From: a virus
Lineage: Duplodnaviria > Heunggongvirae > Uroviricota > Caudoviricetes
Length of the DNA: 4,910 nucleotides
Virus record (IMG/VR): IMGVR_UViG_2671180439_000002
Span: 1-4,910 of that record
Strand: one strand, 5' to 3'
Shown piece by piece: positions 1 through 4,910 of the stretch (position 1 is its first letter; each line of letters opens with the position of its first letter). A program made the translations under genes and the position numbers. The notes beneath the pieces are model-generated. The model was not told where the DNA came from. It did not search any database and saw only the letters and a list, made by a program, of their open reading frames with translations.

Positions 1-267
1 TGTTCAGCAGATTATCAGGCGCAACTGAAGCGGCATAATCTGCGTGGAAGTATGAGCGCAAAAGGTTGCTGCTACGATAATGCCTGCGTGGAAAGCTTCT
101 TTCATTCGCTGAAAGTGGAATGTATCCATGGAGAACACTTTATCAGCCGGGAAATAATGCGGGCAACGGTGTTTAATTATATCGAATGTGATTACAATCG
201 GTGGCGGCGGCACAGTTGGTGTGGCGGCCTCAGTCCGGAACAATTTGAAAACAAGAACCTCGCTTAG
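1..267 (+). CDS. insF: IS3 transposase OrfB (InsF-type, DDE integrase domain), C-terminal fragment; 5' end outside the window
   Basis: The reading frame is open from nt 1 with no stop until TAG at 265-267; the track ORF 52..267 is the same frame from an internal Met. The C-terminal motif ...[24 protein letters not shown] is characteristic of IS3 OrfB. Confidence 0.85.
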
Positions 268-297
268 GCCTGTGTCCATATTACGTGGGTAGGATCA
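259..297 (+). repeat. IS3 right terminal inverted repeat (IRR), approximate extent
   Basis: The last ~39 bp of the element end in ...CCATATTACGTGGGTAGGATCA at 297, the reverse complement of the TGATCCTACCCACG... type IS3 terminus. The left IR is not in the window, so the extent is from memory of IS3 only. Confidence 0.55.
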
Positions 298-507
298 GTT
301 CAATGTGATTTTTAAGACGTACTTTGAAGTTTTCCATGCATCCTCCATGCAAAGTGAAAACCTGCTGTTAAATCAAAGCAAGTCACAATCCCGGATAGGC
401 TTCATACAAGCCAATCCCCCACAGGGATTGAGTTATGCAAGCGAATCAATCTCAGAGCTTTTAACATGTATGGAGCTTAGAGATATTGTCCGTTAGACCA
501 TATAAGC

Positions 508-984
508 TTAAGCTCTGGCTTTCGTTTGTTTTTTTCCATCTTCCTCCTGCTCTGCCCATCTCCTTATCTTCATCTCTAATGAGTCTAAATATGCTTTAGC
601 ATCGCTATCTACCCAGCCAGGTATACGCTGTCCTTGCTCTAAGAGGACAAAATCAATGATAGCCTTTTTTTCTCTCGAAGCCTTATTATAGAGCTCGTCA
701 ATAGAACCATTTTTAACTATGGGATCTGTTGCGGGCTCACATGTATCAGTTAGCGGGTATCCCTTTAGTCCCCAGTGCTCGGGGCCCACAACATCAGAAA
801 AGTAGTTCCAAAGCTCTGGTAGCTTCTCTTTCGATATGGAGCCTTTATTGATCCAGTCATGGATTGATGGGGGTTTTATTTTGAAATGACGTGCGATTTC
901 CGCCTTACTCTTGGCAGAACCTATTGAAAGCTTCTTGTCTATGGCCTGCTCGATCGCTCGGCCCAATTCTTTACCACTAAGCAT
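508..984 (-). CDS. racR: RacR-like prophage repressor, 158 aa, N-terminal HTH and no S24 peptidase domain
   Basis: ATG at 982-984 (complement) with a GAGGA Shine-Dalgarno upstream; stop TAA at 508-510. The N-terminus carries a CI/XRE-like helix-turn-helix (SKAEIARHFKIKPPSIHDWINKG). It is transcribed divergently from a Cro-like and a CII-like gene, matching the racR-ydaS-ydaT arrangement of the E. coli Rac prophage, and has the same length as K-12 RacR (from memory). Confidence 0.7.
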   Translation of the reverse strand: MLSGKELGRAIEQAIDKKLSIGSAKSKAEIARHFKIKPPSIHDWINKGSISKEKLPELWNYFSDVVGPEHWGLKGYPLTDTCEPATDPIVKNGSIDELYNKASREKKAIIDFVLLEQGQRIPGWVDSDAKAYLDSLEMKIRRWAEQEEDGKKQTKARA

Positions 985-1085
985 TGCCTAATAATCCTCA
1001 TAACCTATAGCTTAGGCAATTCCTATTGATTGTTTATTAGGCTTAGCCTAATATCTGCTTGTGTGGAAATCATAGGAATCCGTTT
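985..1085. promoter_or_regulatory. Divergent promoter/operator region between the repressor gene and the cro-like gene
   Basis: A 101-bp AT-rich intergenic region between divergent start codons. Candidate rightward promoter: -35 TTGATT (1026-1031), 17-bp spacer, -10 TAATAT (1049-1054). The 8-mer GCCTAATA or its complement occurs three times (986-993, 1035-1042, 1046-1053). A second inverted pair is AATTCCTAT (1018-1026) and ATAGGAATC (1072-1080). Confidence 0.5.
1035..1053. promoter_or_regulatory. Candidate operator: perfect 8-3-8 inverted repeat TATTAGGC-tta-GCCTAATA
   Basis: The two arms are exact reverse complements in the sequence. The repeat lies in the spacer and -10 of the putative rightward promoter, where a repressor operator would be expected. 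Confidence 0.5.
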
Positions 1086-1349
1086 ATGAGAAGTAGCCTT
1101 GAAGCAATCAGTGAAGCCTGCCGCATTGTTGGGGGACAAGCCGCTTTGTCAAGGAATCTAGGCATCTCATCACCAACAGTGAATCAATGGACAACGGGCA
1201 TTAGGCAAATACCTGCGGAACGATGTCCTGCGATTGAGAAAGCTACTGGTGGTGCTGTCACCTGCGAAGAGCTTCGTCCTGACATTGACTGGGCCTATTT
1301 AAGAGGTGCAGCAATGCGAAAGCTTAATGTCACTGCATCAAATTTGTAA
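1086..1349 (+). CDS. ydaS: Cro-like HTH regulator of the YdaS family, 87 aa from ATG 1086
   Basis: ATG at 1086 is preceded by AGGA (1074-1077); the track ORF begins at an upstream TTG (1059) with no Shine-Dalgarno, so 1086 is preferred. The motif GGQAALSRNLGISSPTVNQWTTGIRQIPAERCPAIEKATGG is typical of YdaS/Cro-like prophage proteins. Stop TAA at 1347-1349. Confidence 0.7.
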   Translation: MRSSLEAISEACRIVGGQAALSRNLGISSPTVNQWTTGIRQIPAERCPAIEKATGGAVTCEELRPDIDWAYLRGAAMRKLNVTASNL

Positions 1350-1377
1350 CTACCACCCGAGTTTGAAAGGAGTAGGT

Positions 1378-1830
1378 ATGAACCTCAAAGAAGTCGTGAA
1401 ATCTATGTGCAAAGCATATCCAGGTGGGCGCGAAGCAATGGCTGGCGCACTGGGAATGACGGTGACGCAGTTTAACAACAACCTTTACGAGAAAAACGGC
1501 TGTCGTTTCTTCGAAGTCAGCGAACTGGAAGCGATGGAGGACATCTCGAATACATCTCACCTGGCTGAATATTTTGCCCGCCGTCGTGGTGCTCTGCTGG
1601 TGGATGTTCCGCACCTGGAAGAACTGGACCGCGTGGACTTGTTTAGCCGGGCAATGCGTACCTCTGCCGCCAGGGGGCAGGTTGATCAGATTATCGAACA
1701 GGCGCTTGAAGATGGCGTTATTGAAAGGCACGAGGCCGAAGAAATCATGGTGCATCACCGCCGTCACCTGGCAGCTCGTGAAGAAGAGATTGCCGCAATC
1801 ATCACGCTTTTTTCACGCAAAAAGAAGTGA
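1378..1830 (+). CDS. CII-like / YdaT-like prophage regulatory protein, 150 aa
   Basis: ATG at 1378 follows a strong Shine-Dalgarno AAGGAG (1367-1372) with 5-nt spacing; the track ORF from 1306 overlaps the upstream gene and lacks an SD. It sits immediately after the cro-like gene as cII does in lambdoid switches. The N-terminal region (GGREAMAGALGMTVTQFNNNLYEKNG) is HTH-like; the C-terminus is helical and charged. Stop TGA at 1828-1830. Confidence 0.65.
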   Translation: MNLKEVVKSMCKAYPGGREAMAGALGMTVTQFNNNLYEKNGCRFFEVSELEAMEDISNTSHLAEYFARRRGALLVDVPHLEELDRVDLFSRAMRTSAARGQVDQIIEQALEDGVIERHEAEEIMVHHRRHLAAREEEIAAIITLFSRKKK

Positions 1831-1858
1831 CGCCAGCGAGTTGCAGCTCCTGGCGTCG
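1828..1858 (+). other. Stem-loop between the CII-like gene and dam; no U-tract
   Basis: GACGCCAG (1829-1836) pairs with CTGGCGTC (1850-1857), with an inner GAG/CTC pair (1838-1840 with 1847-1849). It overlaps the stop of the upstream gene and the GTG at 1858. No T-run follows, so it is not a canonical intrinsic terminator. Confidence 0.3.
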
Positions 1859-2697
1859 TGGCGTGTCGTTATCAGTGGAGATTACTAACGCATGAACAGT
1901 TTATCAACACAATACCGCAGGTCGCAACTTGTAGCGCGGCCAGTTCCTGGTGGAGCAGGGCCGGTGCAGTTCGTGTAGAGCCATTCGTTGGTGGTGGGTC
2001 GGTATTCCTGAACAGCGAAAAGCACGCAGATTACCTGCTGGCGGACGTTAACCCGGACCTGATTAATCTGTATCAGATGTTAGCGGTCGTGCCGGATGAA
2101 GTGGAATTGAAGGCCCGCTGGATGTTCGAGCACATGCGGTCACCAGAGCGCTATGAGCTGATCCGTTCCGAGTTCAACTCTCAGACGCTGGATGCTACTG
2201 AACGCGCAGCTGCATTCCTGTATCTCAACCGGCATTGCTTCAATGGTCTGATGCGCTACAACCAGGCGAACAAGTTCAATGTGGGCTGGGGAGGCTACAA
2301 GGCTCCGTATTACCCGATGGATGAGATGAAAGCCTTCGCGGCTATGGCGCATAACTGCGTATTCATGACGGCTGATTACCGCCGGACAATCAGCCTGGCC
2401 GGGAAAGGGGATGTGGTTTACTGCGATCCGCCTTACGAACCGATGCCGGGAACAACCGGATTCACCGCCTACGCCGCTGGTGGTTTTAACTGGGAGAACC
2501 AGGTAGACCTGGCGAAGCAATGCGTATCAGCCTTTCACCGTGGGGCTCGGGTAGTGATTTCTAACTCATCTGCACCGAAGGTTCTCGACCTGTACCGGGA
2601 GCATGGTTTTAACCTGCAATTCATCAACGCGCGCCGTTCGATCTCCTGCAAAAGCAGTACGCGGGAAGTCGCAAAAGACGTTGTAGCGATCCTTTAA
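1858..2697 (+). CDS. dam: Dam-family N6-adenine DNA methyltransferase (prophage-borne); 5' end uncertain, possibly frameshifted
   Basis: From ~nt 1973 the translation aligns well with E. coli Dam: VEPFVGGGSVFLN (AdoMet motif I), AFLYLNR, and the catalytic DPPY motif in VVYCDPPYEP. The track start is a GTG (1858) without a Shine-Dalgarno, and the conserved N-terminal KWAGGK-type motif is absent in this frame. An SD-preceded ATG at 1892 is in the +2 frame and hits a stop at 1976-1978. Stop TAA at 2695-2697. Confidence 0.75.
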   Translation: MACRYQWRLLTHEQFINTIPQVATCSAASSWWSRAGAVRVEPFVGGGSVFLNSEKHADYLLADVNPDLINLYQMLAVVPDEVELKARWMFEHMRSPERYELIRSEFNSQTLDATERAAAFLYLNRHCFNGLMRYNQANKFNVGWGGYKAPYYPMDEMKAFAAMAHNCVFMTADYRRTISLAGKGDVVYCDPPYEPMPGTTGFTAYAAGGFNWENQVDLAKQCVSAFHRGARVVISNSSAPKVLDLYREHGFNLQFINARRSISCKSSTREVAKDVVAIL

Positions 2698-2706
2698 GGG
2701 GGCTAA

Positions 2707-3549
2707 ATGAAACTGACTTTACCATTTCCACCGAGCGTAAATAGTTACTGGCGCGCCCCGAGCAAGGGACCGCTGAAAGGCAGGCATCTGGTAAGCGAGA
2801 CAGGGCGCAAGTTCCAGCAGGCAGCGAGAGCGGCGATTATTGAGCAACTGCGGGCCGTTCCCCGGCCATCCTCAGATCTGGCCGAGGTTCACATAAACGT
2901 TGTTGAGGGCGCGGGGCTTGAGCTTGATCCTGATGATGATTCACAGGTTCTTAAAGCGATTGGTGGCGGTCGCCTGCTTAATATTGTCACCTTTACTAAG
3001 TCAGGGACTTACACTCCAACTAAAGGGACGAAAAGAGTGCGGGTGAAAGTTTGGGGAGCGGGGGGAGGTGGCCAGAATGCTCCAGTTAGTGTGGGCGCAT
3101 CTGGAGGTTGTGCTGGTGGATTTTCGGAAGGGTTATTTAATATTTCTGATAACGAAACTATATCTGTGACGATAGGTACTGGTGGCAGTGCTGTTGCTGC
3201 TGGTGTCTCGTCTAAAGGCGGGAATGGTGGTGATACAAGGTTCGGGAGTTTAATCTCAGCTACTGGAGGGAGTGGTGGCGGGGCTACAGTTCCTGCTGGA
3301 GGTATCGGAAGTGGCGGGAACATTTTAAATATTACTGGCGGAATATCTCAAGGTGGTCTGTATTATGGTTCTGATGCTTTTATTGGCGGGGCTGGAGGAT
3401 CTGCATTTTCATCAACGGGTGGCAATGGCCACTTCGGTAGTTCTGGCGATGATGGCGGTTTCCCCGGCTCAGGTGGTGCCGGGGGGAATGGTAACTATTC
3501 ATCAGGAAAAGGAGCGAATGGTTTAGTTTACCTTGAAGAGTTTTCCTGA
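2707..3549 (+). CDS. Chimeric ORF: RusA-like N-terminus (about aa 1-85) fused in frame to a glycine-rich tail-fibre-type domain (about aa 95-280)
   Basis: ATG at 2707 follows AAGGGGG. The N-terminus (LTLPFPPSVNSYWR ... LELDPDDDSQVLKA) resembles RusA (LPWPPSNNRYYR ... DLDNLQKA), but the downstream catalytic Asp region is missing. From ~nt 2975 the ORF is glycine-rich (TYTPTKGTKRVRVKVWGAGGGG ... GANGLVYLEEF), like phage tail-fibre glycine-rich domains. Codon usage becomes A/T-rich at third positions after the junction. Stop TGA at 3547-3549. Confidence 0.6.
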   Translation: MKLTLPFPPSVNSYWRAPSKGPLKGRHLVSETGRKFQQAARAAIIEQLRAVPRPSSDLAEVHINVVEGAGLELDPDDDSQVLKAIGGGRLLNIVTFTKSGTYTPTKGTKRVRVKVWGAGGGGQNAPVSVGASGGCAGGFSEGLFNISDNETISVTIGTGGSAVAAGVSSKGGNGGDTRFGSLISATGGSGGGATVPAGGIGSGGNILNITGGISQGGLYYGSDAFIGGAGGSAFSSTGGNGHFGSSGDDGGFPGSGGAGGNGNYSSGKGANGLVYLEEFS

Positions 3550-4619
3550 TTATTTTTGCTTTGAGCGTCCGCCCTTATTTTTGCTCTAATTTTAATTAGT
3601 GGCTTGTCTATTAATATTACACAAACGATCCCAAGTGCAATTGATATTGGGTAGCCTAATAAAAAGATGGATAAGCCACGATTTTCACCACCAATAGCAA
3701 GCCATGCTAGAAATCCACCAAAATATTGACAAAGAAAAATTGGATAGGCCAGGTCACCAAACCACTTGAGTATTTTCTCAAGATGTATGTTTGTCTTTAT
3801 TTTTAATAATACCAGGGTTGTAAACAATGCTATTACATTATTGGTGTAGTAAAGTATTATGTTGTACTGACCTAATGGATTAATTGTATATAAATGCCAA
3901 TTGGTAATAAAAATCCCGATGCAAATAAATGTTATTAAAAAAGCTTTGTGTGGAGAAAGATACATAGCTTTGAACTTTCTATGGGCAAAATAACCCAGAG
4001 AACCCATGCTAAAAGGAAGTGTTGCAGCAAGGAATGGGAAATACGCCATATCAAAAGAATGGTGTACTACATATACGTAAGCATGATAAAGCAGTGAAAG
4101 CAGAATCGACGTAATGGCTGTAAATTTATTTCGGGCTATGAAAAGCCACAATAAAAAATAACATGTTATCTCAACACCCACTGACCATGATGATGTGACT
4201 ATTCTGAATCTATTACCATCAATAGCAAAGTGATAAATGGATGAAAAGGCACCGAATGGATTTGCTACAGCATTATCAGAAAGGAAAGCCCAGGGGAAGA
4301 TTAAGAGGTTTCCTAATAAATCTCCAGGTAAGAAATTGCCTGTCCAGTTTGAGTGGAATTCCTTTGCGGATGGAATTAATTTTATAATAAGAAAGCCCAT
4401 GACGAGAAAAAATATATATGCCGGGAATAACCTCAGTATTCTATTTTTCCAAAACATAGAGAAGTTGAACTTGTATGTTTCATGCAAAATGTATGTTATT
4501 AAAAAACCACTAATAACATAGAAGCAATTCACTGCAAAGTTGCCAAGTGCAGGTATGCGAGCCGTTAAGTGAAAAGCAATGACGCACGATGCCAAAAAAA
4601 ACCTTATTAGGCCAAGCAT
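3528..4619 (-). CDS. Acyltransferase family 3 integral membrane protein, 363 aa; putative O-antigen/polysaccharide O-acetyltransferase (Oac/OafA-like moron)
   Basis: Highly hydrophobic with multiple predicted TM helices. The N-terminal VIAFH motif and the FWKNRILRLFPAYIFF motif fit the family consensus (conserved His in TM1; RxxRIxPxY loop). The gene is very AT-rich compared with its flanks. ATG at 4617-4619 (complement), stop TAA at 3528-3530 (complement). Confidence 0.75.
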   Translation of the reverse strand: MLGLIRFFLASCVIAFHLTARIPALGNFAVNCFYVISGFLITYILHETYKFNFSMFWKNRILRLFPAYIFFLVMGFLIIKLIPSAKEFHSNWTGNFLPGDLLGNLLIFPWAFLSDNAVANPFGAFSSIYHFAIDGNRFRIVTSSWSVGVEITCYFLLWLFIARNKFTAITSILLSLLYHAYVYVVHHSFDMAYFPFLAATLPFSMGSLGYFAHRKFKAMYLSPHKAFLITFICIGIFITNWHLYTINPLGQYNIILYYTNNVIALFTTLVLLKIKTNIHLEKILKWFGDLAYPIFLCQYFGGFLAWLAIGGENRGLSIFLLGYPISIALGIVCVILIDKPLIKIRAKIRADAQSKNNQENSSR

Positions 4620-4906
4620 TATTTTATCTCCGCGCCAATATCGCGCATTTTATTTATTACATTGTTAAGTTGCTCATCAGACAGAACAAGCTGAGCTGCA
4701 ATATAAAACAGTATGTGTCTTGACATTACCCTGGGGCTCTCTCCGCCAGTGTATTTCCGCCATTGGCTATCGCTGGCTACACCTGCGAGCCCTGCCATTT
4801 GGTTTCCGGAGTAATTTAGTGCGGATTTCAGTCTGGCTAAATCTTCCTGCGTTGGAGGGGTGTATTTATTTATTAAAATCATTCTCTTATTTAACCGTTT
4901 AAACAC
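4619..4906 (-). CDS. Small XRE-type HTH protein (HigA/YiaG-like); start uncertain and frame open to the window edge
   Basis: The HTH-like segment LNYSGNQMAGLAGVASDSQWRKYTGGESPRVMSRHILFYIAAQLVL is typical of XRE regulators. Its stop codon TAA (4619-4621, complement) overlaps the acyltransferase ATG as TAATG. The track start at 4904-4906 is a GTG and the next codon upstream is not a stop, so the true start may be the ATG at 4880-4882 or lie beyond the window. Confidence 0.5.
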   Translation of the reverse strand: MFKRLNKRMILINKYTPPTQEDLARLKSALNYSGNQMAGLAGVASDSQWRKYTGGESPRVMSRHILFYIAAQLVLSDEQLNNVINKMRDIGAEIK

Positions 4907-4910
4907 GTAA

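Follow-up and report, generated by a model that had tools for sequence, protein, structure and literature searches.

Several prophages of Escherichia coli, Rac, DLP12, and e14 among them, are cryptic and in decay. The locus described here lies in a stretch of 4,910 nucleotides, the whole of which was analysed and which we call the window, and it resembles those elements and the prophage remnant of E. coli HS in that its immunity region and cargo genes have been kept and its replication, lysis, and virion genes are gone, through large deletions and IS insertions. Unlike such cryptic prophages, it contains a deletion that by chance fell in frame, leaving a long chimeric open reading frame (ORF).

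Described systems offer a comparison for each part of this ORF. Klebsiella phage KpF5 matches window positions 298-2895 at 97% and conserves the gene order repressor, cro, cII, (O), dam, rusA; unlike in the window, the O gene of KpF5 is present, its Dam and RusA are complete, and its late region is that of a siphovirus; KpF5 contains neither the glycine-rich fibre nor the acyltransferase. The Holliday-junction resolvase RusA is known from the structure of the D70N variant of an E. coli cryptic-prophage RusA, and its activity depends on D70, D72, K76, and D90/D91, with R69 required for DNA binding (E. coli numbering; PMC1636454). The tail fibre has its counterpart in cyanophage Pam3, a minimal myophage with a solved fibre, gp24 (7YFW/7YPX), whose N-terminal region docks to the baseplate and whose type requires a chaperone for folding (PMC9608196).

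Composition of the 280-codon reading frame

The window contains the following features, each given with the evidence for it.

1-297, + strand: right end of an IS3 element, which forms the remnant's left boundary in this strain (rve_2 and rve_3 matches for the ORF at 52-267)
508-984, - strand: RacR-type prophage repressor, apparently intact (racR in PGAP; 97% DNA identity to the 'prophage repressor' region of KpF5)
1086-1830, + strand: first genes of the rightward operon, Cro/YdaS-like at 1086-1349 and CII/YmfL-like at 1378-1830 (PF15943, E=2.7e-30; PF06892, E=2.4e-14)
1858-2697, + strand: 5'-truncated Dam methylase (PF02086 match beginning at profile position 23; comparison with KpF5 Dam)
1976-1978, + strand: second deletion junction, with TA microhomology (KpF5 match split into two pieces)
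2696-2702, + strand: Shine-Dalgarno-like AAGGGGG, the native rusA ribosome-binding site (read from the sequence)
2707-2893, + strand: 5' fragment of rusA, codons 1-62, of KpF5-like lambdoid prophage origin (protein identity to the RusA of prophage L004, phrog_34, PGAP)
2894-2895, + strand: deletion junction (left homology ends at 2894/2895, right homology begins at 2894)
2896-3549, + strand: 3' part of a tail-fibre gene, codons 45-261 of a 261-residue fibre plus the stop (nucleotide identity, PF21722, profile match)
3528-4619, - strand: Acyl_transf_3 O-acetyltransferase (PF01757, E=2e-15; phrog_3333, E=5.8e-22)

The ORF runs uninterrupted on the + strand from the ATG at 2707 to a stop ending at 3549, 280 codons as an earlier note on this DNA had read it, and joins RusA residues 1-62, through a hybrid codon for Ile63, to fibre residues 45-261 (217 codons). 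Its ribosome-binding site overlaps the Dam stop TAA at 2695-2697 and lies 4 nt upstream of the ATG, an arrangement of Shine-Dalgarno sequence and dam stop that precedes the intact rusA genes of L004 and KpF5 in identical form; the fusion also sits directly after dam in the early-right operon, where rusA sits in both of those elements. On its sequence the ORF is a real chimera of two phage genes. PHROGs families divide it cleanly, with the RusA-like resolvase family phrog_34 matching residues 1-63 (E=1.8e-12) and tail-fibre families matching residues 79/81-280 (best phrog_863, E=2.8e-44), and the only Pfam domain found in the 280 residues is Gly_rich_2 (PF21722; residues 99-276, 37.9 bits against a cut-off of 24.3), in agreement with the glycine-rich domain of tail-fibre C-termini named by the earlier note. 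Third-position GC content (GC3) is 0.61 over codons 1-62 and drops to 0.33 over codons 64-280, a change located in sliding windows straddling nt 2890-2950. The compositional shift that had been described is real, but it belongs at 2894/2895 and not at 2950-2990, and the switch between the two parts, previously assigned to the same interval, likewise lies 60-100 nt further upstream.

The first 63 residues of the fusion, which carry LTLPFPPSVNSYWR, are identical at 63 of 63 positions to the N-terminus of the intact 125-residue RusA of L004, a bona fide member of the family (PF05866), including the LPxPPSxNxYWR motif. Descent from RusA, as first proposed, is upheld by this identity and by phrog_34, over 62-63 codons and not the approximately 85 originally suggested. 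The PF05866 match that had been expected for residues 1-85 did not appear: the model gave no match to the 280-residue ORF or to residues 1-85 (E<=0.1), nor to residues 1-63 (E<=10), because the fragment spans just the first half of the model. We considered whether this silence might argue against RusA and ruled that out, as the segment is identical to a PF05866-positive protein (the intact 125-residue parent scores E=7.7e-16 and 59.3 bits against a cut-off of 22.8) and matches phrog_34.

Compared with RusA, the fusion has no second half of the fold, the RusA sequence stopping at residue 63. In the parental allele the residues required for catalysis and DNA binding correspond to R73, D74, D76, K80, and D94/D95, all of them past the break, so that the entire set (the equivalents of R69, D70, D72, K76, and D90/D91) is absent from the fusion, and the statement that it had lost the catalytic Asp region of RusA is borne out. 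Judged by the residues it retains, the rusA piece is a gene fragment and not an enzyme. A 'DxDD' motif had also been assigned to RusA; the segment in question, LELDPDDDSQV (D74-P-D-D-D78), sits in the fibre-derived part and is unchanged in the intact fibre genes, and its likeness to the catalytic D-x-D and EDDSQV of RusA is, on this alignment, a matter of chance.

Two coincidences of position accompany this likeness. At 74 and 76, the fusion has fibre-derived Asp residues exactly where the catalytic Asp pair of the parental RusA is found, and the DDSQV that follows them in the fusion is also found at RusA 94-98. Short acidic motifs such as DxD and DDSQV may thus imitate catalytic signatures by chance, a warning that applies to motif reading more generally.

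Over 656 nt, the remainder of the ORF does not differ by a single base from the fibre genes that E. coli HS (L003) and 20KM2222 (L008) carry intact. The intact right parent is a 261-residue glycine-rich fibre (PF21722) of lambdoid prophages that combine a lambda-type head with a contractile tail; in the four prophages examined, the baseplate genes gp46, J/gp47, and YmfQ lie upstream of it, and the partly deleted HS remnant keeps the same order around its fibre gene. The earlier note had proposed alignment to intact Rac-like prophages; the phage is not Rac, the left arm being of KpF5-like lambdoid type, and the fibre comes from a contractile-tail late module. A profile of the fibre family (28 members) matches Pam3 gp24 with E=1.8e-17 at profile positions 45-271. 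Relative to fibres of the Pam3 type, fusion residues 64-280 are identical to residues 45-261 of the intact prophage fibre, and the fusion is without the first 44 residues and without baseplate or virion gene neighbours. Residues 2-82 of the intact fibre match N-termini that are conserved across many tail fibres (phrog_1858, 2617, and 6859), and by homology the deleted residues 1-44 would be part of the baseplate-docking region. Neither the window nor any of the carriers has virion genes near the fusion, its upstream neighbours being dam and the rusA fragment itself.

The junction and its carriers

The junction was mapped by megablast against 5,426 complete E. coli genomes and by base-by-base alignment with both parents. 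Identity to rusA runs through ...GTTCACAT and identity to the fibre gene starts from TAAACGTTG..., and the protein stretch that spans the junction lies within ...DLAEVHINVVEGAGLELDPDDDSQVLK. T2894 is common to both parents, as is A2895 if the rusA allele was that of KpF5 (ATA), which amounts to 1-2 nt of microhomology; the resulting hybrid codon, ATA at 2893-2895, encodes Ile63. The breakpoint is abrupt, little homology is shared across it, and both parents occur intact elsewhere, which together are the marks of a deletion scar. The intact prophage of 20KM2222 ends with a recombinase gene, and we considered a site-specific or invertase-mediated rearrangement; we rejected it on the 1-2 nt of homology and on a search in which no inverted repeats were found flanking or entering the fibre gene.

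The fusion is present in 10 of the 5,426 complete genomes, which match window positions 298-4910 at 99.9-100%, all with both junctions, and the carriers always hold it in one and the same decayed remnant. Another 22 genomes match solely from nt 2894 rightward, where they have the 3' part of the intact 261-residue fibre gene, and some 40 further genomes match the Dam-RusA region just up to 2894/2895, where they have an intact 125-residue RusA. A search for full-length proteins of the same architecture in a database of 5.8 billion proteins returned only the fusion itself, as one 90% cluster of 63 members, and the single contig that was read for this cluster shows the same decayed context as the carriers. 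The many full-length orthologues in intact phages that, according to the earlier note, would have made this a conserved gene did not emerge. Several proteins that might be mistaken for such orthologues on query coverage (84-94%; P0011, P0021, and others) were rejected as ordinary fibres with spuriously aligned N-termini; the P0011 alignment has almost zero identities in the RusA part, and a RusA domain was found in none of the tested proteins.

Variation among the carriers is slight, and the ORF is intact in 12 of 12 copies. Three carriers have one private G-to-A change each in the fibre part, and all three hit glycines (G120R, G199S, and G212E); for comparison, eight changes separate the intact fibre alleles of HS and ECCTRSRTH03, five of them synonymous and three non-synonymous. 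The higher share of non-synonymous changes among carriers comes from three events and is not significant (p about 0.12, hand calculation), and the pattern of substitution fits drift, with numbers too small for significance. The junction at 2894/2895, taken together with the second junction at 1976-1978, offers a clean marker by which this clonal E. coli lineage can be recognised.

One ancestral prophage or two

We consider it very probable that the ORF is a scar of prophage decay, in which a large deletion fused rusA in frame to the tail-fibre gene. This is the large deletion or illegitimate recombination event favoured by the earlier note, which gains support from the intact state of both parents elsewhere, the 1-2 nt of microhomology, and the position of rusA relative to the fibre gene in intact prophages. 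In 20KM2222, rusA lies at 30808-31170 of the locus and the fibre gene, identical to that of the fusion over the shared sequence, at 7177-7962; in Ec1117 the corresponding positions are 20528-20890 and 44136-44921. Both prophages carry rusA in their nin region, in the same orientation as the fibre gene and 23-24 kb upstream of it, which makes an internal deletion the simplest way for the fusion to have arisen.

The remnant in E. coli HS bears on the same question. HS shares with the carriers the chromosomal locus, the right-hand flank, and the integrase allele, and HS and one carrier (L001) have three SNPs in common relative to L004. The deletion in HS is a different one, running from mid-int to the gene upstream of the terminase gene. 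Different deletions against this shared background suggest two independent deletions from one ancestral prophage, and the remnant and the differently deleted HS locus together permit the reconstruction of most of that ancestral mosaic.

As reconstructed, the ancestor would have been a lambdoid prophage at tRNA-Ser between mtfA and yodB. Its early region would have been KpF5-like and would have comprised integrase, ParB, a RacR-type repressor, Cro/YdaS, CII/YmfL, O, Dam, and RusA; the order repressor, cro, cII/YmfL, O, dam, rusA is that of the left parent, as found in the L004 prophage at tRNA-Ser beside mtfA and in phage KpF5. Its late region would have contributed the lambda-type head, the contractile tail, the 261-residue glycine-rich fibre, and an acyltransferase cargo gene. 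A single illegitimate recombination event at 1-2 nt of microhomology would then have removed the approximately 23 kb that separated codon 63 of rusA from codon 44 of the fibre gene, with the reading frame preserved by luck, a one-in-three chance. Since the two genes lay on the same strand and the frame was kept, the native rusA ribosome-binding site and start codon would now head a 280-codon chimera.

That both parents resided in a single mosaic prophage is, we believe, probable, although an un-deleted ancestor of this kind did not come to light and the left-arm relatives have siphovirus tails, so that a deletion between two adjacent prophages stays a live alternative. According to this alternative, a KpF5-like siphovirus-type prophage at tRNA-Ser lay beside a resident contractile-tail prophage, and the scar arose through a deletion of more than 50 kb or through recombination between genomes. 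Neither the 5,426 complete E. coli genomes nor the phage collection, where matches were to the left half of the window alone, yielded an intact prophage combining a KpF5-like early region with the contractile-tail late module, and among the genomes that have the Dam-RusA region the fibre gene is confined to the 10 carriers. The intact left-arm relatives inspected all have an HK97-type head and a siphovirus-type tail and are without the glycine-rich fibre; one of the related prophages at the tRNA-Ser site, that of MLI106K4, has a complete siphovirus-type late region and no fibre/acyltransferase module. The locus from mtfA/tRNA-Ser to yodB moreover holds the remains of more than one element, with a second integrase fragment and PolV remnants inside attR. 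These observations lend the two-prophage origin some plausibility, but HS and this lineage would each have had to undergo a very large deletion, independently of the other and joining the same pair of elements, and an internal att copy was not found. The late module, furthermore, has already been seen with three other lambdoid early modules (it is combined with at least three different early modules and integration sites: kch-yciI, yecE-yecD, and tRNA-Ser in HS), so that a fourth combination would be unremarkable. On balance we regard an origin from two prophages as possible and somewhat unlikely, and a single mosaic ancestor as the better account of the locus.

Neighbouring genes and the fate of the fusion

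The genes around the fusion show how the rest of the prophage has fared. At its left edge, the IS3 part (1-297) accounts for thousands of E. coli matches that are confined to it, and the carriers match only from nt 298 onward. IS-free carriers have an HSDR_N gene to the left of racR, and other carriers have ISKpn26, or IS1 and ISEc52, at other positions. The genes at 1086-1830 include a CII-like activator by a further match (phrog_101, E=6.1e-45). At the second junction, located in the same operon as the fusion, 1,284 bp are missing relative to KpF5, comprising a small ORF, a replication-O-like gene, and Dam codons 1-28. The truncated Dam accordingly has neither its own start nor the FLKWAGGK motif, and the frame upstream of it is open by chance, through the out-of-frame sequence of another ORF. 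To the right of the junction, the O-acetyltransferase gene converges on the fibre remnant with an overlap of 22 nt and has a GC content of 35%; it follows the fibre gene in all intact prophages examined and is probably a cargo gene for lysogenic conversion. It was retained because the right deletion end point falls inside the fibre gene, just upstream. The biological weight of the locus is small: it adds another case of cryptic-prophage erosion by minimal-homology deletions and IS insertions, a process that spares the immunity region and cargo genes, here the O-acetyltransferase.

With respect to expression, the RacR-type repressor is expected to silence the rightward operon, including the fusion ORF. 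A promoter and terminator scan of the window gave counts within shuffle expectation, with none in the racR-cro intergenic region at 985-1085, the expected site of the rightward promoter. An intact ORF, a good ribosome-binding site, and a preserved frame would make translation upon derepression possible. Given that the parts for catalysis and docking have been lost and that the repressor is apparently intact, we conclude that the fusion is most likely silent and non-functional, and that it most likely persists solely because the event is recent and clonal.

The earlier note had entertained a new functional fusion protein as the alternative to a scar, and we found no support for it. In such a case the fusion would have been co-opted: it would be made on derepression, and either the glycine-rich receptor-binding trimer or the DNA-binding N-terminal half of RusA would be of use, such as in the exclusion of related phages or in interference with junction resolution. 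The integrity of every copy, the native ribosome-binding site, and the preserved frame speak for such a protein, and the retained fibre part does begin almost exactly where homology to the Pam3 fibre starts, with Asp at 74 and 76 as in the parental RusA. The distribution, however, is clonal, with essentially zero divergence where selection could show itself, and the three changes observed all replace conserved glycines. The fibre segment is 100% identical to the intact fibre genes, so that nothing in it has been adapted, and the RusA side has neither counterparts of R69, K76, and D90/D91 nor the latter half of its fold. The first 25 residues, MKLTLPFPPSVNSYWRAPSKGPLKG, are by eye unlike a signal peptide, so that the glycine-rich domain would remain cytoplasmic, and a fibre of the Pam3 type would further need its chaperone in order to fold (PMC9608196). 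We therefore hold co-option to be very improbable. Slimmer still is the chance that the chimera is made when the repressor is inactivated and functions either as a cytoplasmic glycine-rich trimer, titrating a fibre chaperone or a baseplate component of superinfecting relatives, or as an N-terminal half of RusA that disturbs junction resolution; if this were true, a deletion scar would have been turned into a small defence or interference factor. Finally, an assembly or sequencing artefact from a chimeric contig, for which nothing speaks except the abrupt change in composition, is refuted almost beyond doubt by the recurrence of the identical junction in 10 genomes that were finished independently and come from various hosts and countries, and also in one short-read assembly separate from these.

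We regard the locus as an ordinary deletion scar, and RefSeq already annotates its rusA piece as a pseudogene: PGAP labels the stretch corresponding to 2707-2896 a RusA pseudogene without its C-terminus, some PGAP records also contain a shorter 'glycine-rich domain-containing protein' with its start at 3037, and other gene callers, inconsistently with these, give a 280-residue 'glycine-rich' protein.

Chance likeness to RusA and substitutions in the fibre-derived part

The fibre-derived part of the fusion ORF contains a short stretch that resembles RusA at the protein level, in which the linear positions of fibre-derived D74 and D76 coincide with those of the catalytic residues D74 and D76 in parental RusA, and the sequence DDSQV mimics parental EDDSQV.

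Window 2926-2949 (aa 74-81): fibre-derived stretch with D74, D76 and DDSQV

Since the DNA of this stretch is 100% identical to that of intact fibre genes, we regard the likeness as chance; it accounts for the assignment of a 'DxDD' motif to RusA in the earlier note, which misattributed residues that come from the fibre gene. Among the E. coli genomes that carry the fusion, three have a private G-to-A change in the fibre-derived part, at window 3064 (G120R, L011), 3301 (G199S, L009) and 3341 (G212E, L010), and the residue replaced is glycine in 3/3 of these substitutions; none of the carriers showed a synonymous change.

Further deletion scars

The operon of the fusion ORF holds a second deletion scar upstream.

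Window 1858-2000: second deletion scar, with TA microhomology at the junction (1976-1978)

Relative to Klebsiella phage KpF5, 1,284 bp are absent at this junction, a loss that took a replication-O-like gene in its entirety, together with codons 1-28 of Dam, which encode FLKWAGGK among other residues, and left a small ORF reduced to 28 codons and ended by a TAG that the junction itself created. The remaining Dam sequence is nonetheless labelled an intact DNA adenine methylase by PGAP. The fibre gene also took part in another in-frame scar, in the database protein P0007 (ENA contig, 1,554 nt), which begins with 356 residues from the N-terminus of a DNA-circularisation protein (PF07157) and continues with the last 86 fibre residues, a segment 100% identical to window aa 195-280. 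E. coli HS (L003), which has a differently deleted remnant at the same chromosomal locus, passes at its deletion junction (L003 8325-8339) from an int fragment into the gene upstream of terminase, with ~15 nt common to both parents.

Immunity region and O-acetyltransferase, a probable cargo gene

Window 508-1349: RacR-type repressor and adjoining YdaS-family gene
Window 3528-4906, minus strand: Acyl_transf_3 O-acetyltransferase region (2793-7198 in intact prophage L008; 44900-49005 in intact prophage L013)

The gene beside the repressor belongs to the YdaS family (PF15943, E=2.7e-30). In K-12 Rac, RacR is required to silence the toxic ydaS/ydaT genes, and by analogy such silencing could be a reason that the immunity region survived in the remnant. 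The O-acetyltransferase gene, of low GC (35%), is convergent with the fibre gene, and the two share 22 nt. It is preceded on its own strand by a small ORF of 87-95 aa (phrog_20491), labelled a transcriptional regulator in W21, in which no significant HTH match was found (PF13560, E=0.051). Next comes a large gene annotated as SGNH/sialate O-acetylesterase, present in the carriers, in HS and in the intact prophages of ECCTRSRTH03 (L002) and Ec1117 (L013). The co-occurrence of acetyltransferase and esterase in one prophage suggests a putative pairing of receptor modification with a putative receptor-deacetylating tail protein.

Insertion sequences and the chromosomal locus

Window 1-297 (within region 1-337): IS3 right end
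L001 (a carrier) 21674-21751: attR, 78 nt that duplicate the 3' part of tRNA-Ser, annotated 'tRNA-OTHER'

At the left edge of the window, IS3 splits a gene of the HSDR_N/DUF450 type ('type I restriction endonuclease'), which in IS-free carriers starts at ~nt 337 on the minus strand. Other carriers have ISKpn26, or IS1 plus ISEc52, elsewhere in the remnant; the elements and their sites differ among carriers, which shows that decay went on after the deletions. In carriers, ~14 kb separate the attR copy from the tRNA, and a second integrase fragment and PolV/UmuD remnants directly inside attR indicate that the locus comprises the remains of more than one element.
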